A stretch of DNA of 28,789 nt from an uncultured Candidatus Saccharibacteria bacterium (GTDB lineage Bacteria; Patescibacteriota; Minisyncoccia; Minisyncoccales; RBG-13-42-11), in the NCBI GenBank assembly GCA_964474185.1, contig CAYYRI010000001.1:1-28789 (forward strand), in the 5' to 3' direction. Positions 2,629-25,898 of this stretch are shown piece by piece. Position 1 is the stretch's first letter. The number at the start of each line of letters is the position of its first letter. Position numbers and translations under genes: made by a program. Under the pieces are notes generated by a model that searched no databases, had not been told where the DNA came from, and saw only the letters and a program-made list of their open reading frames with translations.

Positions 2629-4791
2629 TTAGGGTTTGTCTCTCGCCTCTTTTAACGAGAGGTTAATTCTTCCTTGTTCGTCAATTGAAATCACTTTAAC
2701 GGGAATAATATCCCCGATTTTTACTATGTCTTCCACTTTATTGACTCGATAGTCAGCCAACTGGGAAATGTGAACCAGTCCGTCCTGGCCGGGTAAAATT
2801 TCGACGAAAGCGCCGAAATCCAGAATTCTTTGTACTTTGCCCTGGAATATTTCCCCCACTTTTACCTCTCTGGTGATATTTTTTATCCAGTCGGCGGCTT
2901 TTATTCCGGCTGTTTCTTTTTCAGCGGTGATGAAGATTCTCCCCGAATCTTCGATGTCGATTGAAACTCCGCACTCTTCGATTATTTCATTGATAATTTT
3001 CCCTCCGGGGCCGATCACCTCCCTGATTTTCTCGGGATTAATCTGCAGAATTATGATTCTCGGGGCGTAGGGTGAAAGTTCGGGCCTGGAGCTTGAAATA
3101 ACCTTTGACATTTCGTCCAGGATCTGAAGCCGGGCCCTTTTTCCCCGGGCAAGGGCTTCTTTTAAAATTTCTTCTCCGATTCCCTCGATTTTTACATCCA
3201 TCTGGATCGCGGTTATCCCGTCTTTTGTTCCGGCTATCTTGAAATCCATGTCTCCGTGATGATCTTCCGGTCCCTGTATATCGGTTAAAATTTTGTAATT
3301 GCCTTTGCCATCCTGCATCAATCCCAGAGCGATTCCGGCCGCCTGTTTCTTTATCGGCACTCCGGCATCCATCAAAGCCAAAATTGAACTGGAAACCGAA
3401 GCCATTGAAGTGGAGCCGTTGGATGAAAGAATTTCAGTGACAATTCTCATCGTGTAAGGAAATTCATCAAAACTCGGAATGAGGGGGAACAAAGCTTTTT
3501 CCGCCAGCATGCCGTGGCCGATTTCCCGCCTGCCCGGCCCCCTTAAGGGTTTTATCTCTCCGGAAGAATAGGGCGGAAAATTGTAGTGATGCATAAAACG
3601 TTTTTTCCCGGTAACTTCCATGCCTTCCAGCAGTTTTACGTCGCTCGGCGCTCCCAAAGTTAAAATCGAAAGAGCATGGGTGATGCCCCGGCAAAATAAA
3701 CCCGAGCCGTGAGTTCTCGGCAGTAATCCCACCTCAACCTGGATTTTTCTTATTTCATCGATTTTCCTGCCGTCGGGTCTTTTTTCCGAAGCGATCGCGT
3801 TTTTATGGACCAATCTGTTGATTTCTTCCTCGAAAATCCGAGCCGCAGCGGAGGATGAAGAAGAGGATTTATTCTCTTCGCCCATACTGGCAGGATATTT
3901 CCTCCGGATATGATAAATCAGCTCGTCTTTAAGTTGATTTACATCGTCCATCCTTTCTGCTTTGTCTTTCTGATAAAGGGCATTTTCCAGCCTGTCCCCC
4001 AGAAAATCCTTGATTTCTTTTTCCAATTCCGGATCTTGCGGAGGCTCGTTGATTTTAATTTTTTCTTTCCCGACTTTTTCGGCAATTTCTTTTTGGAAAT
4101 CGATCAGTTTTTTTAAATAAGGCTTGGCCGATTCTATCGCCTCCACGACCACGCTTTCCTCGATTTCATCTCCTTCGAGCTCCATCATACTGATCAAAAC
4201 ATCGTCATTATCTTTGTTCCCTAAAAATCGCGCGGATGGGGAAGACATCCCCGTTACGGCAAAATCCAAATTGCTTTTTTCCCTTTCGGCATAGGTAGGA
4301 TTCAAGATAAATTTTTCTTCTCCTTTTCCGATTCTCAAAGCGGCTATGGGGCCTGACCAGGGAATGTCGGATATGGAGAGCGCAAGAGAGGCCGCAATCA
4401 ATCCTATGATATCCGGGTCGTTTTCTCCATCCCAGGAAAGGCAGGTGACAACCACCTGAACTTCTCTTTTTAAATTCTGGGGAAAGCAGGGCCTGATTGC
4501 TCTGTCGATGAATCGGGAAGTCAAAATAGCCTCATCCGAAGGCCGACTTTCCCTTCTTAAGTACCTGGAACCTAATATTTTTCCGGCGGCATAAAATCTT
4601 TCCTCATAATCAACGGTTAAAGGGAAAAAACCCGCTCCCTCAGATTCGTTTTTAGACATTACCGCCGTAGCCAAAACCAGAGTGTCTCCGTATTGAACCA
4701 AAACATTGCCCGACGCTTGTTCGGCCAGATTCCTGATTTCCACTTTAAGTTCTTTTCCTCCGATTTCTAGTTTGAAAGTTTCCTTGATCAT
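2629..4791 (-). CDS. pnp: Polyribonucleotide nucleotidyltransferase (PNPase)
   Basis: 720 aa. Two RNase PH-like halves (FPLTVDYEERFYAAGKI; GLLPRTHGSGLF), KH (GPGGKIINEIIEE) and S1 (VGEIFQGKVQRILDFGAFVE) domains. Confidence 0.97.
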   Translation of the reverse strand: MIKETFKLEIGGKELKVEIRNLAEQASGNVLVQYGDTLVLATAVMSKNESEGAGFFPLTVDYEERFYAAGKILGSRYLRRESRPSDEAILTSRFIDRAIRPCFPQNLKREVQVVVTCLSWDGENDPDIIGLIAASLALSISDIPWSGPIAALRIGKGEEKFILNPTYAEREKSNLDFAVTGMSSPSARFLGNKDNDDVLISMMELEGDEIEESVVVEAIESAKPYLKKLIDFQKEIAEKVGKEKIKINEPPQDPELEKEIKDFLGDRLENALYQKDKAERMDDVNQLKDELIYHIRRKYPASMGEENKSSSSSSAAARIFEEEINRLVHKNAIASEKRPDGRKIDEIRKIQVEVGLLPRTHGSGLFCRGITHALSILTLGAPSDVKLLEGMEVTGKKRFMHHYNFPPYSSGEIKPLRGPGRREIGHGMLAEKALFPLIPSFDEFPYTMRIVTEILSSNGSTSMASVSSSILALMDAGVPIKKQAAGIALGLMQDGKGNYKILTDIQGPEDHHGDMDFKIAGTKDGITAIQMDVKIEGIGEEILKEALARGKRARLQILDEMSKVISSSRPELSPYAPRIIILQINPEKIREVIGPGGKIINEIIEECGVSIDIEDSGRIFITAEKETAGIKAADWIKNITREVKVGEIFQGKVQRILDFGAFVEILPGQDGLVHISQLADYRVNKVEDIVKIGDIIPVKVISIDEQGRINLSLKEARDKP
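3837..3882 (-). repeat. GC-rich hairpin repeat inserted in phase within pnp (encodes GEENKSSSSSSAAARIF)
   Basis: Minus strand GGCGAAGAGAATAAATCCTCTTCTTCATCCTCCGCTGCGGCTCGGA closely matches 10021-10066, 10258-10303 and 20401-20446. Confidence 0.75.
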
Positions 4792-5899: not shown

Positions 5900-6385
5900 C
5901 TATTGGATCGGACATTTCCCCGTGAATTCCCACCAATTTCCCAGACCCGTCCACTCTTGAATGCCCATGAAACCAAGGAGGGTGTTCAGAAGAATCCAAG
6001 CTATAAAAATAATCACTATGCCGATAATCGCCGCCGTAATCACTGATTTTGCCCGGTTCAAACTTTGGGGATTAATGCCGGCGGTTAAAAGATATAATCC
6101 GCCGATGATCAGCATTAGACCGCCGATTACGGGAGTGAGACAGGTCAGAATGAAATTAATGATATTGGTGATAAGGACAAAAATATGGCAGAATTGGCAA
6201 GCTGGCTGTTCCTGTCCTCCGCAGGGGACAATCGGTCCGCCGCAGTCCGCCAGAACCTGATTAGCCGGAAATAAAAAAAATCCGATTAGAATTCCTGACA
6301 ATATTAAATTTGGAAATTGGAATCTGGAAGCGAAGAGCGTTTGCTTTTCTTTATTTCGTTGCGACTCGATAATTGAAAATTTCAT
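5900..6385 (-). CDS. VirB2/TrbC-like (T4SS-pilin-like) small membrane protein of the type common in CPR genomes
   Basis: Signal/TM segment, then Cys motif CGGPIVPCGG...ACQFCHIFVLITNIINF, then two hydrophobic helices (PVIGGLMLIIGGLYLLTAG...AAIIGIVIIFIAWILLN). Start taken at MKFSII (6385); the upstream ATG at 6400 lies in a hairpin. Confidence 0.6.
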   Translation of the reverse strand: MKFSIIESQRNKEKQTLFASRFQFPNLILSGILIGFFLFPANQVLADCGGPIVPCGGQEQPACQFCHIFVLITNIINFILTCLTPVIGGLMLIIGGLYLLTAGINPQSLNRAKSVITAAIIGIVIIFIAWILLNTLLGFMGIQEWTGLGNWWEFTGKCPIQ

Positions 6386-6415
6386 ATACTGAGCTTCCAT
6401 TTATTATTTATGGAA

Positions 6416-6460
6416 GCGAAGTCGAAGAAGAGGAGAAAATCCTCTTCGCCTGCTGTGCCC
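6416..6460 (+). repeat. Diverged copy of the GTCGAAGAG-hairpin repeat family
   Basis: GCGAAGTCGAAGAAGAGGAGAAAATCCTCTTCGCCTGCTGTGCC contains the hairpin GAAGAGGA/TCCTCTTC and a related tail. Confidence 0.5.
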
Positions 6461-6536
6461 CCGGAAGGAGTCGCCCCGCACCAGAACAAGTTCGGTACGG
6501 GGTCTTCGGTCGCCGAAGGCGACCTCGAAACCCTTA

Positions 6537-6608
6537 TGCCCTCGCCAGGACTCGAACCCGGACCTCGGGGTCCGAAGCCCCGCATGATATCCGTTTCACC
6601 ACGAGGGC
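6537..6608 (-). tRNA. tRNA-Arg (anticodon UCG)
   Basis: 72 nt. Acceptor GCCCTCG/CGAGGGC, anticodon stem CGGGG/CCCCG with loop CT-TCG-GA, T arm CCGGG-TTCGAGT-CCTGG, discriminator A. CCA is not encoded. Confidence 0.9.
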
Positions 6609-6634
6609 GATTAATATTTATTCTATCATAAAGA

Positions 6635-6663
6635 TTGAAAAAGACAAGTTTTTGAGATAAGAT
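6635..6663 (+). promoter_or_regulatory. Candidate promoter for cca
   Basis: TTGAAA (6635-6640), 17-nt spacer, TAAGAT (6658-6663). Lies 19 nt upstream of the ATG. Confidence 0.3.
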
Positions 6664-6681
6664 GAACCCAGCAAAAGAAAA

Positions 6682-8163
6682 ATGCTTATTCCCAAGGAGG
6701 TAAAATTTTTAATTGGAGAATTGAAAAAGAAGGGCTTTGAAGCGTATGTCGTCGGCGGTTGCGTCAGGGATTTTTTGAGAGGAGTTTCTCCAAAAGACTG
6801 GGATGTAGCCACCTCGGCCCGACCCGAGGAAATCCAAAAAATTTTTCCTAAGAGTTTTTACGAAAACAGATTTTTGACCGTAACCGTGCAGACGGGAAGC
6901 AAGAGCCCCGAATCAAAAGAAATTGAAATAACAACTTACAGGTCGGAAGCAAGATATACCGACAAGCGCCATCCTGACGAAATAAAATTCGCCGAAACCC
7001 TGGAAGAAGATTTGGGAAGAAGGGATTTCACGATAAATGCCATGGCCATCGACTTGGCTAAGCCAAGTTTCAAAACAAGTTTCAAAATCATCGATCCTTT
7101 TAACGGTCAACAGGATCTGAAGAATAAAATGATTCGGGCTGTTGGCAATGCCCAAGACCGGTTCGCCGAGGACGCTTTGAGGATGATGAGAGCGGTCAGG
7201 TTTGCCGCAACTTTGGACTCATCCGTCAGCTGGCGGATAGAAGAAAAAACGCAGGAAGCGATCAAAAATAATTCTTTCTTATTGAAGGCGATTTCCCAGG
7301 AAAGAGTCAGAGACGAATTGATGAAAATTATTATGACAGAGAGAGCGATGGAGGGTATAGAACTTTTAAGGCAGCTTAACTTGCTAAAATATATTATTCC
7401 GGAATTGGAGGAAGGTTACGGCACCAGCCAGAATAAGCATCATATATATGAATGCTACGAGCATTATTTAAGGTCCTTTGATTACGCAGTAAAACATAAT
7501 TTTAATAAGTATGTCAGACTGGCCGCTTTGTTCCATGACATCGGCAAGCCCCGGGCAAAACGGGGAGAAGGCAAGGACGCGACCTTTTACGGCCACGAGA
7601 TAATCGGAGCCAGAATGACAGCCCAAATTCTGGGCAGATTAAAATTCCCCAAAAAAGAAATTGAAAAAATAGTGAGATTGGTCAGATACCATCTTTTTTA
7701 CTATAATGTCGGAGAAGTTTCGGAGAGTTCGGTGAGGAGATTGGTTCTTAAGGTGGGTCCCGAAGACATGGAAGAATTGTTGCAGCTGAGAATGTCAGAC
7801 AGAGTGGGCTCGGGAGTTCCCAAAGCCGAACCTTACAAATTAAGGCATTTGAAATACGTGATTGAAAAAGTCGCCCAGGATCCGATTTCGGCAAAAATGC
7901 TCAAGACTTCGGGCGATACGATAATGAAAATTTTGAAAATCAAACCGGGGCCCAGAATAGGGCAAATTCTGGACGTTTTATTGGGTCTGGTTTTGCAAGA
8001 TCCGAAGAAAAACAAAAAAGAATTTCTGGAAAAGGAAATTAGAAGATTGGGAAAATTATCCGATAAAGAATTGAGGGCTTTGACCCAGAAGGCCCGGAAA
8101 GAGCGGGAAGAAATAACAATGAAAAGGGACGAAATGACGAAAAAGAAATACTGGGTGACGTAG
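6682..8163 (+). CDS. cca: CCA-adding tRNA nucleotidyltransferase (class II, with HD domain)
   Basis: 493 aa. N-terminal GGCVRDFLRGVSPKDWDVATSARPEEI and RDFTINAMA polymerase-beta motifs; HD motif LFHDIGKP. Confidence 0.9.
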   Translation: MLIPKEVKFLIGELKKKGFEAYVVGGCVRDFLRGVSPKDWDVATSARPEEIQKIFPKSFYENRFLTVTVQTGSKSPESKEIEITTYRSEARYTDKRHPDEIKFAETLEEDLGRRDFTINAMAIDLAKPSFKTSFKIIDPFNGQQDLKNKMIRAVGNAQDRFAEDALRMMRAVRFAATLDSSVSWRIEEKTQEAIKNNSFLLKAISQERVRDELMKIIMTERAMEGIELLRQLNLLKYIIPELEEGYGTSQNKHHIYECYEHYLRSFDYAVKHNFNKYVRLAALFHDIGKPRAKRGEGKDATFYGHEIIGARMTAQILGRLKFPKKEIEKIVRLVRYHLFYYNVGEVSESSVRRLVLKVGPEDMEELLQLRMSDRVGSGVPKAEPYKLRHLKYVIEKVAQDPISAKMLKTSGDTIMKILKIKPGPRIGQILDVLLGLVLQDPKKNKKEFLEKEIRRLGKLSDKELRALTQKARKEREEITMKRDEMTKKKYWVT

Positions 8164-8167
8164 TTCG

Positions 8168-8304
8168 GTTATCACTTTTCCAAAGAAACACAATAATTTT
8201 CCCCAGCGTGGAAAATTTTGTTCGGCTCTCGGCCTCGCTCTTCCCGCTTTAGCGGGAAACCGTGCCCGTTCGGCCTCCGAGACGTTCTTTGAGAAAAGGA
8301 TAAC
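8168..8304 (+). repeat. 137-nt element closed by about 21-nt inverted repeats, with a GC-rich structured interior
   Basis: GTTATCACTTTTCCAAAGAAAC (8168-8189) pairs with GTTCTTTGAGAAAAGGATAAC (8284-8304). Inner hairpins are AATTTTCC/GGAAAATT and TTCCCGC-TTTA-GCGGGAA. Confidence 0.5.
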
Positions 8305-8376
8305 CTCACTTTACTGAAAAATTTTTACCTCGCTTGAATTTGATTATTTAGAAATTAAGATTTAGAAATTATTATA

Positions 8377-8447
8377 CGGGGCATAGTATACCGGTAGTAC
8401 GCACGCTTCGGGTGCGTGAAGATTGGGTTCAATTCCCAATGCCCCGA
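8377..8447 (+). tRNA. tRNA-Pro (anticodon CGG)
   Basis: 71 nt. Acceptor CGGGGCA/TGCCCCG (the C1:G72 pair typical of bacterial tRNA-Pro), anticodon stem CACGC/GCGTG, loop TT-CGG-GT, T arm TTGGG-TTCAATT-CCCAA, discriminator A. CCA is not encoded. Confidence 0.9.
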
Positions 8448-8450
8448 CAT

Positions 8451-8524
8451 GGGCCTGTAGTAAAACGGCATTACGCGGCATTCGCATTGCCGAGGTCCGG
8501 GTTCAATTCCCGGCAGGTCCACCA
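8451..8524 (+). tRNA. tRNA-Ala (anticodon CGC), CCA encoded
   Basis: Acceptor GGGCCTG/CAGGTCC with the G3:U70 alanine identity pair, loop TT-CGC-AT, T arm CCGGG-TTCAATT-CCCGG, ACCA 3' end. Confidence 0.92.
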
Positions 8525-11286
8525 TGAATTCAATGCCTTTTCTCTGGATAATTTTTAGTTATTTTTTAGGGTCTATTCCCTTCGGTTATTTAATCGGCCG
8601 TTTATCGGGAAAAAATGTTTTAGAAGTTGGCTGGAGAAAAACTTCGGGCAGCAATGTTTTTAAAAACGTAGGAAAATGGCAGGGAGTTTTGACTGCAATT
8701 TTAGATGTTTCCAAAGGATATGCGGCAGTTTACGGAGCCAGGACGCTGGGCCTATCTTCGGAAGTTCAGGTTCTTTCCGGGGTGGCGGCGGTTACGGGCC
8801 ATAATTGGTCTCTGTTTTTGAAATTTGCCGGAGGGCGGGGCATCGGCACCTTTGCCGGCGCCTTTTTGGCTTTGTCTCCCCAAATTCTTCTCTTTTCCAT
8901 CATCCCCCTTATTATTTTAGCCATTGTTTGGAATGCCGCAATCGGGACCATTTTATTTTTATTCACTGCAATTTTCCTTTCCCGGTATCTTAATCAATTT
9001 GGGACGGCGGGAGTTTTTACAACTTTGTCCTTAGTCCCCATTTTCATTAAAAGATTAAGCCCGATCGAAGAAATCAAAGAATCTCAGAGAAAAGCGCAAT
9101 TATTAAGAAATCGTCTTATTTTTGACGATGACGTGGCTTTGTTGGAGTTGAGAATCAAAAGAATTTTCCAAAAAACAAAAGGCAGCCACGGTTTATTTAT
9201 GAAAATAATGAAACCCGTTACCGCTCCTTTCTGGCTGCCCCCGAAAGTCGGCTGGCAGGTGGCGAAATTCGGGGTAAAGATGGCTAAAAAACCGATAGGC
9301 AAATTTATTTTGAAACCTCAGGAAAAAGTCGTTAACGAAATTAAAACAGAGGACTTTAAAAAAATGATGGTCGCCGCCGCCAAAAAAATCGTTGTGCATC
9401 AGGAGGAAATCAACAAAATAAACGTTTTCCCCGTGGCGGACAAAGATACTGGTTATAATTTGGCGGCTACTTTATTGGGGATTGAGGGAACAATCTCCCA
9501 AAGAAATTACCAAACCCTTAGAGAGTTGACCAAAGACATCAAAGAGGCGGCGATGATTAACGCCAGGGGAAACGCCGGAATGATTTACACGGGTTATCTG
9601 ATTGAAGTTCTGGACAGAGTGAAACATTTGGAAACGATAGATGCCTTTCATTTGGCTCTGGCGATGCGAAGAGGGATAAAAGCGGCAAGATCCTCCATTG
9701 CGGAACCCGTGGAAGGAACGATTTTGGACACGGTAAAAGCCGCCGGAGAAAGAGCTTATGAAGTCGCCAAATTTAAAGATCCCGCCCTCGGCAAACAGGA
9801 AAAAAACATAATTAAAATGCTGGAGGAAGCTCAGAAGAGCTCGGATATCGCCCTTAAAGAAACGAAAGAGAAATTACAAGTTTTGAAGGAAAACGACGTG
9901 GTTGATGCCGGGGCCCTGGGTTTCGTCAAAATCTTAGAGGCCTGGGTTGAAAGCCTGAAGGGAGTTGAAGTAGCCAGCCCCATTTTTTCGCCGGAAACAG
10001 AAGAGAAGCTAAAATACAGAGTCGAAGAGGATAAATCCTCTTCTTCACCCTTCGCTGCGGCTCGGGTATACGAAGTGGTGCTGAGTTTCAGAAAAAATAA
10101 AGAAATCAGCGCAGAAGATTTAAAAAATGAATTATCTTCTTTGGGCGACAGTTTGGAGATTCTGGAACTGGAAGACAAAATCAAACTTCATATTCATACG
10201 AACGAGCCGGAGCTTGTTCGAGAAAAATTCAGGCACTTGCCGGAGTTTGAATCAAGGGTCGAAGAGCTTTTATGCTCTTCTTCACCCTTCGCTGCGGCTC
10301 GGGCGATTGAAGACATGGAACATCCGGGCTTGGCAGGCGATGAATCTAAAGATTCATCTTCACCTACCCGAGCGCAGCGAAGGGTGGAAAAGAACAGAAT
10401 GTTCTTTGATTCGCCTCGCCGCGCGCTCGGCTTGGTGGTTGATGAAGTTGCCGATTTACCGAAAGAATTTTTAGAAAAATATAATATTGAAGAAGTGCCT
10501 TTTACGACCAGGTTTCCGGACGGAGAATTCATCACTTCAAAAGAAGATATTTATCAGAAAATGAAAGAAGCTTTGGCAACCGGGCGCCATTTGCCCACTA
10601 CTGCCGCCCCTTCGTTCAAAAATTTCCTTTCGGTTTATCAAAACGCTCTGAAAAATTTTGAAAAAATTTTGGTGATCACCATTTCTTCGAAGCTTTCCGG
10701 CGCTTACAGTTCGGCCAGAATCGCCCGTTCCGTTTTCAAAAAACCGGAAAAGCTTGATATCTTCGTTTTCGACTGTTTTACCGCCGAAGTCGGCGAAGGT
10801 CTGGCCGCGATAAAAACGCAGGAATTGATTTCCCAGGGCAAAACGACCGAAGAGATTGTGGAAAAACTGAAAGAATTTTGTCCAAAGATTACTTTATTGG
10901 CCTGCATAGACGATTTTAAATACGTAGTCAGGGGAGGAAGAGTCAGATTGCCAAAAATATTCATTGGACCTACCTCGTTCATCCAGAAATTGGGAATCAG
11001 GTTTTTGGTGGGTTTGAAAAACGGAAAGGTCAAATTCTTCGGGGCGAGTTTGGGGAAAGACAAGGCGAGAATCCTGGCCGAAGAGATTGATCTGCAAAGA
11101 CGAGGCGGAGCTATCCAGGTGGCCATAGCCCACGCCGATAATTTGAAAGAAGCCCAGAAACTTAAAACCGAACTGGAAAAAAGGCCCCAAATAAAAGTTT
11201 TATACATTTCTTCGGTATCGCCGGTGGTGGCAACCCATACGGGGCCCGGGGCGCTTCTCGCGGCCTTTCATCCGATTGACAAATAA
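8524..11286 (+). CDS. plsY: Single ORF fusing a PlsY-like acyl-phosphate:G3P acyltransferase, a Dak2/DhaL (FakA-like) kinase module and a DegV (FakB-like) fatty-acid-binding domain
   Basis: PlsY part, residues 1 to about 195: LGSIPFGYLIG, DVSKGY, GHNWSLFLKFAGGRGIGT, multiple TM helices. Dak2 part, about 270-480: INVFPVADKDTGYNLAAT. Central part: LGDSLEILELEDKIKLHIHTNEP. DegV part, about 637-920: VVDEVADLPKEFLEKYNIEEVPF...TTAAPSFKNFL...ITISSKLSGAYSSA. No stop codon anywhere in 920 codons. Confidence 0.85.
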   Translation: MNSMPFLWIIFSYFLGSIPFGYLIGRLSGKNVLEVGWRKTSGSNVFKNVGKWQGVLTAILDVSKGYAAVYGARTLGLSSEVQVLSGVAAVTGHNWSLFLKFAGGRGIGTFAGAFLALSPQILLFSIIPLIILAIVWNAAIGTILFLFTAIFLSRYLNQFGTAGVFTTLSLVPIFIKRLSPIEEIKESQRKAQLLRNRLIFDDDVALLELRIKRIFQKTKGSHGLFMKIMKPVTAPFWLPPKVGWQVAKFGVKMAKKPIGKFILKPQEKVVNEIKTEDFKKMMVAAAKKIVVHQEEINKINVFPVADKDTGYNLAATLLGIEGTISQRNYQTLRELTKDIKEAAMINARGNAGMIYTGYLIEVLDRVKHLETIDAFHLALAMRRGIKAARSSIAEPVEGTILDTVKAAGERAYEVAKFKDPALGKQEKNIIKMLEEAQKSSDIALKETKEKLQVLKENDVVDAGALGFVKILEAWVESLKGVEVASPIFSPETEEKLKYRVEEDKSSSSPFAAARVYEVVLSFRKNKEISAEDLKNELSSLGDSLEILELEDKIKLHIHTNEPELVREKFRHLPEFESRVEELLCSSSPFAAARAIEDMEHPGLAGDESKDSSSPTRAQRRVEKNRMFFDSPRRALGLVVDEVADLPKEFLEKYNIEEVPFTTRFPDGEFITSKEDIYQKMKEALATGRHLPTTAAPSFKNFLSVYQNALKNFEKILVITISSKLSGAYSSARIARSVFKKPEKLDIFVFDCFTAEVGEGLAAIKTQELISQGKTTEEIVEKLKEFCPKITLLACIDDFKYVVRGGRVRLPKIFIGPTSFIQKLGIRFLVGLKNGKVKFFGASLGKDKARILAEEIDLQRRGGAIQVAIAHADNLKEAQKLKTELEKRPQIKVLYISSVSPVVATHTGPGALLAAFHPIDK
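10021..10075 (+). repeat. GC-rich hairpin repeat, in phase inside the fusion ORF (encodes VEEDKSSSSPFAAARVYE)
   Basis: GTCGAAGAGGATAAATCCTCTTCTTCACCCTTCGCTGCGGCTCGGGT contains the hairpin GAAGAGGA-TAAA-TCCTCTTC. About 46 of 52 nt are identical to the intergenic copy at 20401-20452. Confidence 0.8.
10258..10413 (+). repeat. Cluster of three hairpin-repeat modules (one direct, one hairpin-only, one inverted) forming the linker before the DegV domain
   Basis: 10258-10303: GTCGAAGAGCTTTTATGCTCTTCTTCACCCTTCGCTGCGGCTCGGG. 10339-10358: GATGAATCTAAAGATTCATC. 10366-10413: ACCCGAGCGCAGCGAAGGGTGGAAAAGAACAGAATGTTCTTTGATTCG, the reverse complement of the family consensus with a different but still paired hairpin. 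Confidence 0.75.
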
Positions 11287-11481: not shown

Positions 11482-13689
11482 ATGGACATAAAAAATTTTG
11501 CATCGGCCATCGCCCAAATTGCCGAAGAAAAAGGCATTTCAGCGGAAAAGGTTTTGGAAACCATTGAGATGGCCATCGCCGCCGCTTACAAAAAGGATTA
11601 CGGCAAAAAAGGCCAAATAATCAAAGCCAAGCTTGATTCGGAATCTGGCGATGTTAAGTTTTGGCAGGTGAAATTGGCGGTTGCAAAATCAATGATTTAT
11701 TCCGAAGAAGAATTGAAAAAGCTCGCGGAGAAAGCCGCAATTTCTCAAAGGCCAGTTTCCGTCGAGAATGAATTCTCGGAAGAAGAAATCAAAGGCGAAA
11801 AGAAAGTTCGTTTTAACCCCGAGAAGCATATTATGCTCGAGGACGCAAAAAAGATAAAACCGAAAATAAAAGCGGGCGAAGAGTTTGAAACGCCTTTGGA
11901 ACCTCAGAAAGATTACGGAAGAATTGCCGCCCAGACGGCAAAACAAGTAATTCTCCAGCGAATCAGGGAAGCGGAAAAAGAAAGCATATTCTCTGAATAT
12001 AAATCCAAGGAAGGAGAAATAATTTCCGGTATCGTCCAGAGGATCGAGGGCAGAAACGTCTTTTTGGACATAGGCAAGACATTGGGCGTTTTGCCGAGAG
12101 AAGAGCAGGTTATGGGAGAATTTTACCGCCCCGGCCAGCGGCTTAAAGCATACGTTTTGAAAGTTGATGAAACCCCTAAGGGCCCAATAATTTTTTTATC
12201 AAGAGCTTATCCAAAATTGATTTCAAAGCTTTTTGAATTAGAGGTGCCTGAAATTTCTTCCGGCCAGGTCCAGATAAAATCAATTGCCAGAGAGGCTGGT
12301 TCGAGGTCGAAAATTGCGGTGGCGACCGAAGCGGATGGAGTAGATCCGATAGGAAGCTGTTTTCCGGGCAGAACTTTAATTCTAATGGAGGATTTCAGTT
12401 ATAAACCCATTGTTCAACTATCAAAAGGAGAAGTAGTTTTCACTCATTTAGGGAACCGAGAAATAATCTCAAAAACTTTTAAAAGGATATGGAATGGAAC
12501 TACTTTAAAATTTGAAGTTTTTGGAATTCACCAGAATTTAGAAGTTACTAAAGAACATCCGTTGCTTTTTACCCTTGGCTACGACCAAAAAAAAGAATTT
12601 AAAGAAGCTTCGAGAATTAAAAAAGGCTATTTAGCAATCCCTACTTTAGAAAATGTAGTATTTGATAAAACTATTTATCATTTCGAAAAAGAAAAAGATT
12701 TTTTATGGGTTTTGGGAATATATTTAGCTGAGGGTTCTTTGGATCGCGCGGAGGTTAATTTCACCCTCTCTAAACAAGAAAAAGATAAAGCATTAAAGAT
12801 AAAAGATATAATGGAAAAATATGGGGGCAAGGTTTATATTAGAGAATCTAACTGTCGCCCTTCAGTTTTAGATATTAAATTATTTGGAGAATATTGGAGA
12901 AAAATATTCAAAGAATTGGGCGGAGAGTATTGCGATAGAAAAAAAATAAATTCAAGATTAATGTTTTTAAGCCCAAAATTACAACTCGAAATTTTCAAAG
13001 GGTGGAAAGATGGAGATGGTTATTTTGATAAGAAAAGAAACCGAACTATAATAGTTACAACCTCAGAGAATCTTCTATGGCAGATGTATCATATTTTACT
13101 TAGAAATAAAATTAGAGCCAATATGCAAAAACGAAAAGACCGAGAGGGTCGAAAAGATGCTTATCAATTGGAAATCGCCAATAATAAGACGAGAGATTAT
13201 CGGGGATTTTTTCGAGGTGATTATTATTTTTCACGCATCAGAAAAATAGAAAGAGGACCTTGTTCTTCGGGCCGCCAGGTTTACAACCTTGAGGTAGGGG
13301 ATGATAATTCCTATATAGCTTACTCAGTGGCAGCACATAATTGTGTCGGCCAAAAAGGAACGAGAGTAATGGCCGTGATAAACGAACTGGGCGGAGAAAA
13401 AATCGATATTATCGAATATTCGCCAGAACCCGAAAGGTATATTGCCAACGCCTTATCCCCCGCCAAAGTTTTAGAAGTAAAAATTCTGCCGAAAAATAAA
13501 GCCCAGGCCGTTGTTCCCGAAGACCAATTGTCTTTGGCCATCGGCAAAGACGGCCAAAACGTCAGATTAGCGGCGAAATTAACGGGCTGGAAAATAGACG
13601 TTAAGGGTCCGGAAGAGGAAAAAAAACAAGAAGTCGAAGAAACAAAAAAAATAAAAAAACCAAGAAAAAAACCCAAAAATAAAATATGA
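11482..13689 (+). CDS. nusA: Transcription termination/antitermination factor NusA, interrupted by an intein
   Basis: N-terminal domain, S1 ([21 protein letters not shown]) and KH1/KH2 domains. The extein junction DPIGS|C...HN|[24 protein letters not shown] restores the conserved DP(V/I)G(A/S)CVG motif. Lys-rich C-terminal tail. Confidence 0.95.
12358..13341 (+). mobile_element. Intein (328 aa) with LAGLIDADG homing-endonuclease domain inside nusA
   Basis: Cys1 ([13 protein letters not shown]), block B TKEHP, LAGLIDADG motifs LGIYLAEGS and [11 protein letters not shown], block [23 protein letters not shown] followed by +1 Cys. In frame (residues 293-620). Visibly more AT/Lys-rich than the flanking nusA sequence. 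Confidence 0.9.
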
Positions 13690-20400: not shown

Positions 20401-20452
20401 GCGAAGAGGATAAATCCTCTTCTTTACCTTTCGTTGCGGCTCGGGTGTATGA
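20401..20452 (+). repeat. Intergenic copy of the GTCGAAGAG-hairpin repeat family
   Basis: GCGAAGAGGATAAATCCTCTTCTTTACCTTTCGTTGCGGCTCGGGTGTATGA is near-identical to the coding copy at 10021-10075. Confidence 0.75.
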
Positions 20453-22012: not shown

Positions 22013-23767
22013 ATGAGGGTAGAACCGCAACAATTAAAAGCCTTTCTTTTGGACGCCAAATTGGTTACCGAAGAGCAATTCGACGGGGCCGCAAAGATTG
22101 CCCAAGATTCCAATCAAAGAGTGGGAGATGTTTTAGTTTCCCAAGGAATTATTCCCCAGGAAGATCTGATCAAATTGGAGGCATATATTTTGGGGATTCC
22201 GTTCGTCAATTTGGAAAAAGAGAAAATTGAAGATGAAATTTTAAAGATGATTCCCGAGCCCATAGCCCGTTCGAATAACATCGTCGCTTTCAGAAAAAAA
22301 GGAAACGAGCTGGAGGTGGCGATGCTCGACCCCGAAGATTTGAGAACGATCGAATTCATTAAAAAAACGGCCAATCTTAAAATCTTACCCAGATTAACCA
22401 CTCCCGAAAGCATTAAAAACGTCTTGAGACAATATCAACAAACTTTGGAAGTCGAATTCGGAGAAATTATAAAAAAAGAGGCCGGAGTGATAAAACCGAT
22501 AAAGGAAGAAGAAACAGTGGAAACGGGAGAAGACCTCAGGAAAGCGGCCGAAGAATTGCCGGTAATTAAAATTGTCGATACTTTATTGAAACACGCCATC
22601 TTGCAGAGAGCTTCGGACGTTCATATTGAGCCCACGGAAAAAGAAGTTCTGGTCCGTTATCGAATCGATGGAATTTTGAGAGACGCCATGACTCTGCCCA
22701 GATTAGCCGCCTCGGGAATCGTCGCCAGGATAAAAGTCCTTTCCAATCTGAAACTTGACGAACACAGGCTTCCCCAGGACGGACGTTTTAAGGTTGAAGC
22801 CGAGGATTACAAATATTCAATAAGAGTTTCAGTTTTGCCGGTTTTCGACGGCGAAAAAATCGTAATGAGGCTTCTGCCGGAAACCGCCAAAGCTTTTACC
22901 TTGGAGCAGATAGGGTTAAGAGGAGATGCGTTGGAAACCATTCAGGATAATTTAAGGAAACCGGTAGGTATGCTTTTAGTAACCGGTCCCACCGGTTCCG
23001 GGAAAACCACTACCCTATACGCAATGATGGAAATTTTAAATACCCCCGGCGTAAACATTTCAACAGTTGAAGATCCTATTGAATATAGGATGCCCAGAGT
23101 TAATCAGACTCAGGTTAATCCCAAAATCGGCCTGACTTTTGCTTCGGGGTTGAGATCTCTGGTCAGACAAGACCCGGACATACTTATGGTCGGAGAAATC
23201 CGAGACAGCGAAACCGCAGGCTTGGCGATTAACGCCGCCTTAACCGGGCATTTGGTTCTTTCAACTTTGCATACTAATTCCGCTTCAGGCTCCCTGCCCC
23301 GGCTGATCGATATGGGAGCCGAACCCTTTTTAATCTCCTCGACCTTAAATTGCATTTTAGCTCAAAGGCTGGTGAGGAGATTATCTGAGGAAAAGACAAA
23401 ATACATCCTGAAAGATTCCGAACTTAAAAACATAGCCAAATATTGCGATTTGGACAGGATTTTGAAAATTTTGAAAGAAGAAAAATTGGTGAAACCGAAA
23501 ACTGCCTGGAAGAGCATCGAATTCTTCAGACCCCCCTCGAAGATGAGCAAAGAAAGTCCGGAGGGCTACCGGGGGAGAATCGGAATTTATGAAGTTTTAC
23601 CGGTTACCGAAACCATAAAAGAATTAATCGTAAGACAGGCAAATTCCGACCAAATTCAGGCCCAGGCCCAAAAAGAAGGAATGAGGACGATGATCGAAGA
23701 CGGATTTATAAAAGCCGCCCAGGGAATAACCAGCATCGAAGAAGTATTAAGGGTAATTGTAGAGTAA
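22013..23767 (+). CDS. pilB: Type IV pilus assembly / type II secretion ATPase (PilB/GspE family)
   Basis: 584 aa. N-terminal MshEN-like domain, Walker A GPTGSGKTTT, Asp box, Walker B ILMVGEIRD, His box LVLSTLHTN. Confidence 0.95.
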   Translation: MRVEPQQLKAFLLDAKLVTEEQFDGAAKIAQDSNQRVGDVLVSQGIIPQEDLIKLEAYILGIPFVNLEKEKIEDEILKMIPEPIARSNNIVAFRKKGNELEVAMLDPEDLRTIEFIKKTANLKILPRLTTPESIKNVLRQYQQTLEVEFGEIIKKEAGVIKPIKEEETVETGEDLRKAAEELPVIKIVDTLLKHAILQRASDVHIEPTEKEVLVRYRIDGILRDAMTLPRLAASGIVARIKVLSNLKLDEHRLPQDGRFKVEAEDYKYSIRVSVLPVFDGEKIVMRLLPETAKAFTLEQIGLRGDALETIQDNLRKPVGMLLVTGPTGSGKTTTLYAMMEILNTPGVNISTVEDPIEYRMPRVNQTQVNPKIGLTFASGLRSLVRQDPDILMVGEIRDSETAGLAINAALTGHLVLSTLHTNSASGSLPRLIDMGAEPFLISSTLNCILAQRLVRRLSEEKTKYILKDSELKNIAKYCDLDRILKILKEEKLVKPKTAWKSIEFFRPPSKMSKESPEGYRGRIGIYEVLPVTETIKELIVRQANSDQIQAQAQKEGMRTMIEDGFIKAAQGITSIEEVLRVIVE

Positions 23768-23768
23768 T

Positions 23769-23800
23769 AAATCCGAAGCACGAAATCCGAAATCCGAAAC
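23769..23800 (+). repeat. Heptamer tandem array (AAATCCG units) at the left edge of the pilB-pilC insert
   Basis: AAATCCG AAGCACG AAATCCG AAATCCG AAAC. Confidence 0.6.
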
Positions 23801-23808
23801 AAATTCAA

Positions 23809-24174
23809 ATGGATAAAATTAAAAATTCAAAACAATACGATTTAGAAGAACGCACATTCGAATTTGCAAAGAGAGTAAGAATTTTTGTTAAAGAACTTTC
23901 CAAGACAATAGGAAATATTGAAGATGGGAAACAACTTATCCGATCTTCCGGTTCAATTGGCGCTAATTATATTGAAGCAAATGAATCTTTAAGCAAGAAA
24001 GATTTCGTTATACGAATTAAAATCTGTCGCAAAGAAGCAAAAGAGAGTAAATACTGGTTGCTGCTTATAGATGTTTATAACAATCAAAAATTGGAAAAAG
24101 AACGCCAAGAGCTTACAAAAGAAGCCACTGAGTTAATGATGATTTTCAGTTCCATTATGAGAAAATCTATGTGA
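23809..24174 (+). CDS. Four-helix-bundle protein (23S rRNA intervening-sequence protein / Avd-like family)
   Basis: 121 aa. YDLEERTFEFAKRVRIFVKEL...GKQLIRSSGSIGANYIEANESLSKKDF...ICRKEAKESKYWLLL is characteristic of this family. Confidence 0.85.
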   Translation: MDKIKNSKQYDLEERTFEFAKRVRIFVKELSKTIGNIEDGKQLIRSSGSIGANYIEANESLSKKDFVIRIKICRKEAKESKYWLLLIDVYNNQKLEKERQELTKEATELMMIFSSIMRKSM

Positions 24175-24183
24175 AAAAAGAAT

Positions 24184-24606
24184 ATGAAATACAAAAATCC
24201 AAAAGTTATAGAAAATAAGGTCACTAAAAATATTGAGGATAAGGCAAAAGATTATATTGTTAAATATTTAAAAGAACATGACGGGATAAAGGCCGACGAT
24301 ATTAAGCGGAAATTAAAAAAGGGAGCTGATATTAAAATTTTCAAAAATGGAAAATGCATAAAATGGATTGAAGCAAAGGGTTGCAATAAAAAAGAAACAA
24401 ATATCAGAATTACACCTCAATCGTTATTCACAATTGCAGAAGAAGGCGGGCTTAAAAATTACTTTATCTATTTTGTTTATGAAATGAATTCTAAAAAGCC
24501 GAAGCTTGTCATTTTTGATTATGAAACATTCAAGAAACATAAAATTATAGAAATTAAGTATATAATTCAACCATCTAAAATTAAACATAAGGTAATAGGT
24601 TTATGA
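24184..24606 (+). CDS. Small PD-(D/E)xK nuclease-fold-like protein (DUF3883-like pattern)
   Basis: 140 aa. GADIKIF-x9-IEAKG gives a D...E-x-K arrangement, followed by IRITPQSLFTIAEE and YFIYFVYEM, as in DUF3883-type domains. The call is based on motifs only. Confidence 0.55.
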   Translation: MKYKNPKVIENKVTKNIEDKAKDYIVKYLKEHDGIKADDIKRKLKKGADIKIFKNGKCIKWIEAKGCNKKETNIRITPQSLFTIAEEGGLKNYFIYFVYEMNSKKPKLVIFDYETFKKHKIIEIKYIIQPSKIKHKVIGL

Positions 24607-24668
24607 TTTTGAATTTTGAATTTGGAATTTAGATATTGTTTCGAATTTCGATATTCGAATTTCGAATT
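24605..24668 (+). repeat. Heptamer tandem array (ATTTTGA / TCGAATT units) at the right edge of the pilB-pilC insert
   Basis: ATTTTGA ATTTTGA ATTTGGA ATTTAGA TATTGTT TCGAATT TCGATAT TCGAATT TCGAATT. The TCGAATT part is an imperfect inverted copy of the left array. Confidence 0.65.
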
Positions 24669-24677
24669 TAAATAAGT

Positions 24678-25898
24678 ATGCCGAAATATTTTTATATTGC
24701 AAAATCTTTGAAAGGAGAAGAAAAATCCGGAGTAATGGAAGCAAAAGACACGCACCAGCTGGCGGAAACCTTGAAAAATCAGGGGTTTATTTTAATTAAA
24801 GCCGAACTCGAGAAGGGTAAGTCGGGAAAAAGAAAAATTAATTTTTCCGTCCCCTTTTTCGGCGGAGTTTCATTGACGGAAAAAATGATGTTCACCCGTA
24901 ATCTTCAGGTGATGATATCTGCGGGTCTTCCCCTGCCGAGATCCCTGGAGACTCTGGCCCTCCAAAGTAAAAGTAGGGTATTTAAAAAAGCGCTTTTGGA
25001 AATAAAAGAAGAAATAACCAAGGGAAAAAGTTTTTCCGAAACCCTGGCAAAATACCCCAATATTTTTTCCGAACTTTTTCAAAGCATGATCAGGGTTGGC
25101 GAAGAATCGGGCACCTCGGAAGACGTTTTGAAAGTTTTAACCAGGCAGATGGAAAAAGAACACGAGCTGCGTTCAAAAATACAGGGGGCGATAATGTATC
25201 CTACGGTCATACTTTGCACCATGATTGGCATCGGTGTTTTAATGCTTGTCATGGTCGTTCCAAAACTCGCGGAAACTTTTAAGGAATTGGAAATAGAACT
25301 TCCGGTTACCACCAAAATAGTCATTGGTCTCGGCACTTTTTTGGTCGAAAAGTGGTTTTTGATTGTCCCGATTATTATCGGTTTTTCGTTTTTGTTCTGG
25401 ATGGTTCTGAGAACCCAGACGGGGAAAAAAATAATTGATACCTTGTTCTTGAAACTTCCCATCATTTCCCCCCTCATTAAAAAAACGAACTCGGCTTCTA
25501 CTGTTAGAACCTTAAGCTCTCTTATTGCTTCCGGCGTTCCCATTGTTAAGTCTTTGGAGATTGTTTCGGGAACCTTGGGAAATATGTATTATAAAAACGC
25601 CGTTTTGGCGGCGGCGCAAATCGTCAGAAAGGGAGGAAAACTATCCGAAGCCTTATCAGTCTACCAAGACATTTATCCTCCGATTGTTTTTCAAATGATC
25701 CAGGTGGGAGAGGAAACCGGAGAAACGTCGAGCATTCTATCCAAACTGGCTGATTTTTTTGAAACCGAAGTGACCAATGCCACTCAAAACATGGCCTCGT
25801 TGATCGAGCCCGTTTTAATGCTGATTATCGGAGGAGCAATAGGCTTTTTCGCCATTTCAATGGTTCAGCCCATGTACTCGATGCTTGGGGCATTGTAA
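24678..25898 (+). CDS. pilC: Type IV pilus / T2SS platform protein (PilC/GspF family)
   Basis: 406 aa. Two T2SSF repeats (FTRNLQVMISAGLPLPRSLE...; TVRTLSSLIASGVPIVKSLE...) and three TM segments. Confidence 0.95.
   Translation: MPKYFYIAKSLKGEEKSGVMEAKDTHQLAETLKNQGFILIKAELEKGKSGKRKINFSVPFFGGVSLTEKMMFTRNLQVMISAGLPLPRSLETLALQSKSRVFKKALLEIKEEITKGKSFSETLAKYPNIFSELFQSMIRVGEESGTSEDVLKVLTRQMEKEHELRSKIQGAIMYPTVILCTMIGIGVLMLVMVVPKLAETFKELEIELPVTTKIVIGLGTFLVEKWFLIVPIIIGFSFLFWMVLRTQTGKKIIDTLFLKLPIISPLIKKTNSASTVRTLSSLIASGVPIVKSLEIVSGTLGNMYYKNAVLAAAQIVRKGGKLSEALSVYQDIYPPIVFQMIQVGEETGETSSILSKLADFFETEVTNATQNMASLIEPVLMLIIGGAIGFFAISMVQPMYSMLGAL

Follow-up and report, generated by a model that had tools for sequence, protein, structure and literature searches.

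A probable class-1 LAGLIDADG intein in the KH1 domain of NusA from a bacterium of the Candidate Phyla Radiation

The nusA gene of contig CAYYRI010000001.1 (assembly GCA_964474185.1), whose first 28,789 nt constitute the window analysed here, is interrupted by an in-frame insert, probably a class-1 intein within which a LAGLIDADG homing endonuclease of the two-motif type is embedded. The element is lodged in the first KH domain (KH1) of the transcription factor NusA. Splicing and homing are proposed from the conservation and distribution of the element, and its likely origin is an ectopic invasion from a family of inteins residing in papain-like peptidases. An initial annotation, made from the letters of this DNA alone, had already described a full-length LAGLIDADG intein in NusA KH1. 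This description is now supported by profile matches, by the predicted fold, by an exact empty site and by the invariance of splicing and endonuclease residues.

Host gene and insertion point

The nusA open reading frame (ORF) spans positions 11482-13689 (+ strand) and codes for 735 amino acids, insert included. The insert occupies amino acids 293-620, i.e. nucleotides 12358-13341 (+), and measures 984 bp or exactly 328 codons. It begins with CFPGRT and ends with SVAAHN, after which the downstream extein resumes with CVGQKG, whose Cys provides position +1; the 328 residues initially delimited, from Cys1 to a His-Asn pair followed by Cys, were borne out to the base. The N-extein (amino acids 1-292; 11482-12357, +) comprises the NusA N-terminal domain (Pfam NusA_N, E 2e-30), an S1 domain (E 1e-7) and KH1 up to its profile position 20, and ends with DGVDPIGS. 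The C-extein (amino acids 621-735 plus the stop codon; 13342-13689, +) comprises Cys+1, the GQKG loop, the remainder of KH1 (Pfam KH_5 positions 21-69), KH2, where KH_NusA_C matched, and a Lys-rich tail.

Removal of the insert restored the KH1 loop, as had been anticipated. The NCBIfam NusA model TIGR01953 then matched in one stretch (E 3e-114) instead of two, and KH_5 was complete (1-69/69), whereas in the presence of the insert it was split after position 20 (20 + 49). Once deprived of the insert, the protein aligned to Thermotoga maritima NusA (PDB 1hh2) across DPIGACIGEGGSRI, and the junction (marked by an arrow hereafter) fell between Ser292 and Cys+1 in the shared motif DPIG(A/S)↓C(I/V)G-x-x-G. 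The insertion site, initially assigned to the GxxG loop, does lie within KH1, but the junction G-S↓C-V-G-Q-K-G is situated two residues upstream of the GxxG tetrapeptide and not within it.

Base composition sets the intein apart from its host gene. Its GC content was 0.327 and its GC content at third codon positions (GC3) 0.253, vs 0.431 and 0.445 for the exteins, and only 2.6% of the 984-nt tiles of the window were equally AT-rich. The insert had been portrayed as both A/T- and Lys-rich; the former holds, but Lys accounted for 11.3% of its residues vs 14.0% in the exteins. Neither a second nusA nor a second intein was found in the window.

Intein organization and conserved residues

The intein (12358-13341, +; 984 nt, 328 amino acids, 38.8 kDa, from Cys1 to Asn328) starts with an N-terminal Hint lobe (approximately amino acids 1-105; 12358-12672, +), which harbours block A (Cys1-Phe-Pro-Gly) and block B (T64-K-E66-H67-P68). 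This lobe gave weak Pfam Vint/Hint matches (residues 1-72 and 1-89) and was all-beta in the structural model presented below. The LAGLIDADG domain (approximately amino acids 106-285; 12673-13212, +) follows, with motif 1 LGIYLAEG (E125-G126) and motif 2 FKGWKDGDG (D220-G221). The C-terminal Hint lobe (approximately amino acids 286-328; 13213-13341, +) ends in block G, SVAAHN (His327-Asn328). Every splicing block and LAGLIDADG motif quoted in the initial annotation was found in place.

Eight full-length NusA inteins were mutually 53-87% identical, despite which a precise set of splicing and catalytic residues was invariant. It included C1, G4, T64, E66, H67 and P68 in the N-terminal lobe, E125, G126, G219 and D220 in the LAGLIDADG acidic pairs, and V308, N310, L311, E312, D316, N317, S318, Y319, H327 and N328 towards the C-terminus, where block F displayed the invariant pattern VxNLE...DNSY. 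The same residues were conserved when four inteins from peptidases (see below) were added, except Cys1, since P0004 and P0005 are truncated at their N-terminus; Cys1 was also invariant among the full-length peptidase inteins.

Class-3 inteins lack the Cys1 nucleophile and possess a Trp-Cys-Thr triad, while bacterial intein-like (BIL) domains have no endonuclease and an atypical C-terminal junction. Both assignments were rejected, as Cys1, His-Asn and Cys+1 are all present here together with an endonuclease domain.

Profile and structure evidence

At the profile level, the insert matched Pfam LAGLIDADG_3 (E 1.2e-11) and the NCBIfam model TIGR01443 (intein_Cterm), the latter with 19.5-22.9 bits for a cutoff of 15.6. 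An AlphaFold2 model computed from a 12-sequence alignment reached a predicted local distance difference test score (pLDDT) of 91.7 and a predicted template modelling score (pTM) of 0.90. It displayed beta-rich N- and C-terminal lobes flanking two alpha-beta-beta-alpha-beta-beta-alpha repeats, in the order known from the pseudo-dimeric core of monomeric, two-motif LAGLIDADG enzymes. When this model was compared to the PDB with Foldseek, the top 16 matches were all intein-endonucleases (E 6.6e-17 to 6.6e-11). The TliVMA intein came first (7qsu, E 6.6e-17, template modelling (TM) score 0.76), followed by PI-SceI, PhoVMA, PI-PfuI and 2cw7. Free LAGLIDADG enzymes ranked next, namely I-DmoI and I-Tsp061I (E about 1e-6, about 177 columns).

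Several observations weigh against a typical, functional intein. Pfam Intein_splicing scored 31.5 bits (E 1.8e-7), slightly below its gathering score of 35.8, and none of the NCBIfam N-terminal intein models matched the insert. The match to intein profiles that the initial annotation called for was clear-cut for LAGLIDADG_3 and TIGR01443. The family profile found no solved intein among PDB sequences, and the fold-level match thereby rests on prediction. Block F also departs from its usual consensus VYDL...HNF and reads VYNLE...DNSY, where the consensus Asp and His are both Asn.

The low Intein_splicing score and the unusual block F would agree with a non-splicing insertion domain, i.e. a degenerate intein or a Hint/BIL-like domain kept in mature NusA. 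Such a domain is nevertheless extremely improbable, as is an assembly chimera. Cys1, the block B Thr and His, the His-Asn pair and Cys+1 are invariant across alleles as divergent as those compared above, KH1 would stay split into its 20 and 49 profile positions, and the model shows a closed Hint fold with an endonuclease, like PI-SceI. As for a chimera, the window allele occurs on 17 contigs, assembled independently and drawn from several sources, as well as in NCBI nr and UniRef, while other alleles were recovered from other samples; an assembly artefact is therefore discarded.

Proposed splicing and homing pathway

Efficient class-1 splicing is suggested by the nature of the host, because NusA is a core factor encoded by a single copy in the window and its KH1 would be broken in an unspliced product. 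We infer that the precursor splices efficiently and that the endonuclease is, or recently was, active. According to the pathway envisaged, an 84-kDa precursor would splice itself through an N-S acyl shift at Cys1, helped by Thr64 and His67 of block B, followed by trans-thioesterification onto Cys+1. Cyclisation of Asn328, helped by His327, and an S-N shift would then yield a NusA of 45 kDa, its KH1 intact, and set free the intein of 39 kDa. The endonuclease, either free or still embedded, would use Glu125 and Asp220 to cut intein-less nusA in a region approximating GGN-(AGC/TCT/GCT)↓TGY-GTN-GGN-CAR, and recombinational repair from an intein-bearing copy would install the element. Homing of this kind is expected to result in a patchy distribution and in an intein more similar between lineages than its host gene.

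Empty sites and distribution

The closest NusA in a collection of 5.8 billion proteins (P0015, 90% identical in the best local alignment, which concerns the N-extein) carries no insert. Three contigs encoding it (L001-L003) are syntenic with the window at 89-95% nucleotide identity and share its gene order: a PlsY-FakA-DegV fusion gene, nusA and genes for an H+-pyrophosphatase, ClpP, a PKD protein and RNase Y. Their alignment to the window breaks exactly at 12353/13341, revealing a clean 984-bp insertion. The empty site of L001 reads GAGGGAGTAGATCCGATAGGTTCT↓TGTGTCGGCCAGAAGGGAACAAGA, and on either side of it the identity to the window was 89.6% (N-extein) and 95.3% (C-extein).

At least eight further NusA clusters displayed an orthologous insert at the identical site (P0008-P0014, with 56-84% overall identity, and the fragment P0006), the common pattern being DP[IV]G[SA]↓C...HN↓C[VI]GQ[KR]G. 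A scan of JGI metagenomes uncovered six NusA-intein loci, the reading frames of which were intact in all cases. No intein was present at nusA in any of the 80 best-matching loci from GTDB species representatives (Nealsonbacteria, Paceibacteria, Staskawiczbacteria and similar). Intein-free nusA genes in related genomes, for which a survey had initially been advised, are documented both by these loci and by the exact empty sites of L001-L003. These best-matching loci place the host of the window in the Nealsonbacteria/Paceibacteria group of the Candidate Phyla Radiation (CPR), within which the NusA intein is sporadic. When queried with only the intein or an intein profile, word-indexed searches missed NusA-intein proteins that were found by the full-length query, and the counts given here are consequently lower bounds.

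The sequences flanking the junction are essentially invariant in intein-free relatives (n = 83) as regards DPIG and VGQ[KR]G, but not at the +1 position itself, which is Cys in 24, Ala in 26, Met in 24, Leu in 5 and another residue in 4. The statement that the intein targets a conserved functional site thus applies to the flanking motifs and fails for Cys+1. All nine intein-bearing NusA alleles display Cys+1, vs 24 of these 83 (Fisher test, 4e-5, uncorrected for phylogeny). The +1 residue appears functionally unconstrained for NusA, yet it would decide whether an allele can host the intein. Since the intein needs a Cys+1 that is dispensable to NusA, its hosts would be limited to the minority of nusA alleles with Cys at this position. 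The NusA proteins of E. coli and Thermotoga also have Cys at +1, although Cys, Ala and Met are roughly equal in intein-free CPR relatives.

A regulatory function may also be envisaged, in which splicing, and hence RNA binding by KH1, would be gated by a signal such as redox state (through a disulfide between Cys1 and Cys+1), temperature or RNA. In its favour, the element interrupts an RNA-binding domain in a global transcription factor, Cys is the nucleophile at both junctions and the intein is intact in every allele seen; besides, regulatory roles have been discussed for some inteins (PMC4760082 and PMC10663303). Such a switch is quite improbable, however, because the intein is missing from most close relatives, the closest included, a pattern more in keeping with a selfish element than with a regulator.

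Selection and lateral spread

The whole element, endonuclease domain included, is under purifying selection. Between the window and the intein-bearing locus L004, the ratio of nonsynonymous to synonymous substitution rates (dN/dS) was 0.09 for the entire intein, and 0.077 when the endonuclease domain was taken separately. In the same comparison, synonymous differences amounted to a proportion of 0.48 in the intein vs 0.73 in the exteins, a gap that must be read with caution since the extreme AT content of third codon positions in the intein may bias or deflate its synonymous distance. Nucleotide identities pointed in the same direction: with L004, the intein was 85% identical (93% at its 5' end) and the flanking exteins 65-86%; with L094, the values were 77.6% and 57-70%, respectively. 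Moreover, the intein is absent from the closest genome and present in more distant ones, and, out of six distinct NusA alleles examined, five have an intein with a GC content 6-11 points under that of the flanking sequence. Homing between lineages is expected to produce this very pattern, an intein that diverges less than its essential host gene. Horizontal acquisition, originally deduced from composition, thereby gains support from the empty site, the synonymous rates and the higher identity of the intein than of its host gene.

An alternative, unlikely but deserving attention, is that the element is an old vertical passenger which still splices but no longer homes. It would have undergone precise deletion in most lineages, its endonuclease being kept for structural reasons or for some benefit to the host. 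Some features speak for it, most of which also count against homing. Intein identity broadly co-varies with extein identity across pairs, both rising and falling together; the intein of L007, from a GC-rich host, has nearly ameliorated (GC 0.51 vs 0.54); no convincing co-conversion tract was detected at the nusA junction; and all NusA-intein copies belong to one CPR clade. Because of the co-varying identities and of the composition of L007, much of the intein history may be vertical. A passenger that has ceased to home is at odds, however, with the low dN/dS and the invariant acidic residues and glycines of the LAGLIDADG domain, with an intein more similar than the host gene in the two comparisons cited (L004 and L094), with its occurrence in distant genomes while the closest one lacks it, and with the GC deficit of most alleles. 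Altogether, the intein seems to have been inherited vertically in part and to have homed on occasion.

One candidate co-conversion tract was considered and dropped. The Ser codon at -1, which is TCT in the empty-site relative but AGC in the window and AGT in the L004 allele, first looked like imported flanking DNA. Yet, in a three-way site analysis the exteins of the window agreed with the empty-site relative up to 4 nt from the junction, and the intein-bearing L094 also displays GGT TCT, so that the codon difference is inconsistent among intein-bearing alleles.

Relationship with inteins of papain-like peptidases

An exhaustive HMMER search among 1.84 billion representatives yielded 3438 relatives at E <= 1e-3, of which 63 reached E <= 1e-30. 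Besides the protein of the window itself, the top matches were 30-52% identical (E down to 5e-91). Most of the 63 clusters at E <= 1e-30 were inteins located before the presumed catalytic Cys of papain-like peptidases (P0002-P0005 and P0126-P0165; loci L006, at 6187-7146, L088, at about 8190-9170, L090 and L097). Nearly all top relatives were inserted about 50-120 residues into their host, with junctions of the type Q-G-x-x-G-[ST]↓C...HN↓C-[VAGT]-[GAS].

Assignment of the hosts to papain-like peptidases was based on two Peptidase_C1 matches and on shared motifs: Pfam Peptidase_C1 was matched by the spliced host P0131 (1.6e-10), a PF00112 match was available in precomputed form for P0005, and five of the six spliced peptidase-like hosts scanned had no Pfam match. 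Hosts without such a match carry the papain-type motifs Q...G-S-C, G-G-H and N-S-W-G, as read from their sequences. The +1 Cys of these hosts is presumably their catalytic Cys. One of the genes belongs to a contig of 75 kb and 31% GC, possibly archaeal or viral, on which an MCM helicase is also encoded; another was found among small ORFs without Pfam match. A literature search found no description of inteins in papain-like peptidases.

When 80 inteins were arranged in a neighbour-joining tree, those of NusA formed one clade nested in the peptidase radiation, a placement tempered by the fact that the tree carries no support values. The peptidase sites T-G-T↓C-V-G-Q-A and S-S-S↓C-V-G-Q-A resemble the NusA site G-S↓C-V-G-Q and, at the DNA level, the NusA site and that of P0128 share ATAGG...↓TGTGTNGG. 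The nesting of the NusA clade and the likeness of the sites suggest that the NusA inteins arose by a single ectopic invasion out of the peptidase-intein family, from elements residing at the G-S↓C-V-G catalytic-Cys site. A bolder scenario would combine a cross-domain jump, from a papain-like peptidase gene borne by a virus or an archaeon, with a present role of the intein in gating elongation and termination, in response to redox state or another signal, through Cys1 and Cys+1 in CPR bacteria of reduced genome; we view it as a long shot.

Gene neighbourhood

The nusA gene is not found in the usual rimP-nusA-infB order but is flanked, in all relatives examined, by a lipid-metabolism fusion gene and the pyrophosphatase gene. 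Its stop codon overlaps the start of the gene for the H+-translocating pyrophosphatase (ATGA, 13686-13689). The upstream ORF (8524-11286, +) codes for 920 amino acids and fuses PlsY (glycerol-3-phosphate acyltransferase), a Dak2/FakA-like fatty-acid kinase and DegV. This fusion is conserved in L001-L003; in its place, L004 has a pair of separate genes ahead of nusA, each coding for PlsY only.

A short repeat (core CTCTTCTTCACCCTTCGCTGCGGCTCGGG), which follows a small hairpin, is dispersed in the window as two exact copies and two with 3 mismatches, where none would be expected by chance. Its copies are located at 10038-10066 (+), 10275-10303 (+), 10358-10399 (inverted, partial), 3837-3865 (-) and 20417-20445 (+). 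Three of them lie in frame within the PlsY-FakA-DegV fusion gene and are translated as SSSPFAAAR; the repeat-bearing region of this gene varies in length among relatives (865, 891 and 910 amino acids). The repeat may be a miniature mobile or recombinogenic element tolerated in coding sequence.

The lowest GC content of the window was recorded around 23741-24725 (0.28 over 984 nt), i.e. below that of the intein. This stretch holds two small ORFs (23809-24174 and 24184-24606) between the genes for the ATPase (T2SSE) and the platform protein (T2SSF) of a type IV pilus. The two ORFs may be pilin genes, or else the segment may have been acquired recently.

Comparison with known systems

NusA seems to be undescribed so far as an intein host. 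A full-text search for a naturally occurring NusA intein brought up nothing but expression tags made of NusA or inteins, the main text of the broad survey by Novikova et al. (2016, PMC4760082) does not mention NusA, and a literature search combining inteins with CPR or Patescibacteria gave nothing relevant. The initial opinion that such a host is unusual stands in this respect, but inteins in transcription proteins, namely RNA polymerases, were already known. The present element adds a bacterial elongation/termination factor and an RNA-binding KH domain to the known intein hosts, most of which are proteins of replication, repair and nucleotide metabolism. The element further represents a compact (328 amino acids) and apparently active family of CPR LAGLIDADG inteins; as a defined natural target and natural empty sites are available, splicing and homing become directly testable. 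The link with peptidases would provide a tangible example of inteins switching ectopically from one site to another, in unrelated proteins that have G-S↓C-V-G in common. How inteins work is understood no differently in the light of this element.

The best fold matches were PI-SceI, which is the VMA1 intein of yeast, and the archaeal VMA inteins TliVMA and PhoVMA (1vde, 7qsu, 7qss and 7qst; E 6.6e-17 to 1e-12, TM scores 0.64-0.76). They share with the NusA intein Cys1, the T-x-x-H of block B, a His-Asn pair followed by Cys+1 and a two-motif LAGLIDADG endonuclease inserted in a Hint fold, and they too are inserted at a conserved ligand-binding loop of their host. Yet, the identity is only 12-18%, with no significant sequence match even by profile, the NusA intein is smaller (328 vs about 360-454 amino acids), its host is a bacterial transcription factor instead of an ATPase subunit, and its block F reads VYNLE...DNSY.

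Among transcription proteins, archaeal and chloroplast RNA polymerase subunits are listed as intein hosts in the survey by Novikova et al. (PMC4760082), according to which inteins are few in the core machinery of transcription and translation; in eukaryotes, the RNA polymerase subunits RPB2, RPA2 and RPC2 contain inteins (PMC1635734). These elements are likewise selfish inteins at conserved sites of core transcription proteins, but their hosts are catalytic subunits from archaea, organelles and eukaryotes, whereas here the RNA-binding KH domain of a CPR bacterial NusA is concerned.

LAGLIDADG endonucleases are abundant in rRNA introns of CPR bacteria (e.g. I-ShaI), for which homing and ectopic transposition have been proposed (PMC11270868). 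They share with the NusA element both its bacterial radiation and its nuclease superfamily. In contrast to the two-motif enzyme lying within a protein-splicing element in NusA, they are mostly single-domain, free-standing and removed as RNA.

The inteins of papain-like peptidases have the same length, the same invariant motifs and similar flanks (G-[ST]↓C-V-[GA]) as the NusA intein. They differ from it by their host protein and, probably, by their host organisms. The +1 Cys, presumed to be the active-site nucleophile in the peptidases, is a dispensable residue in NusA.

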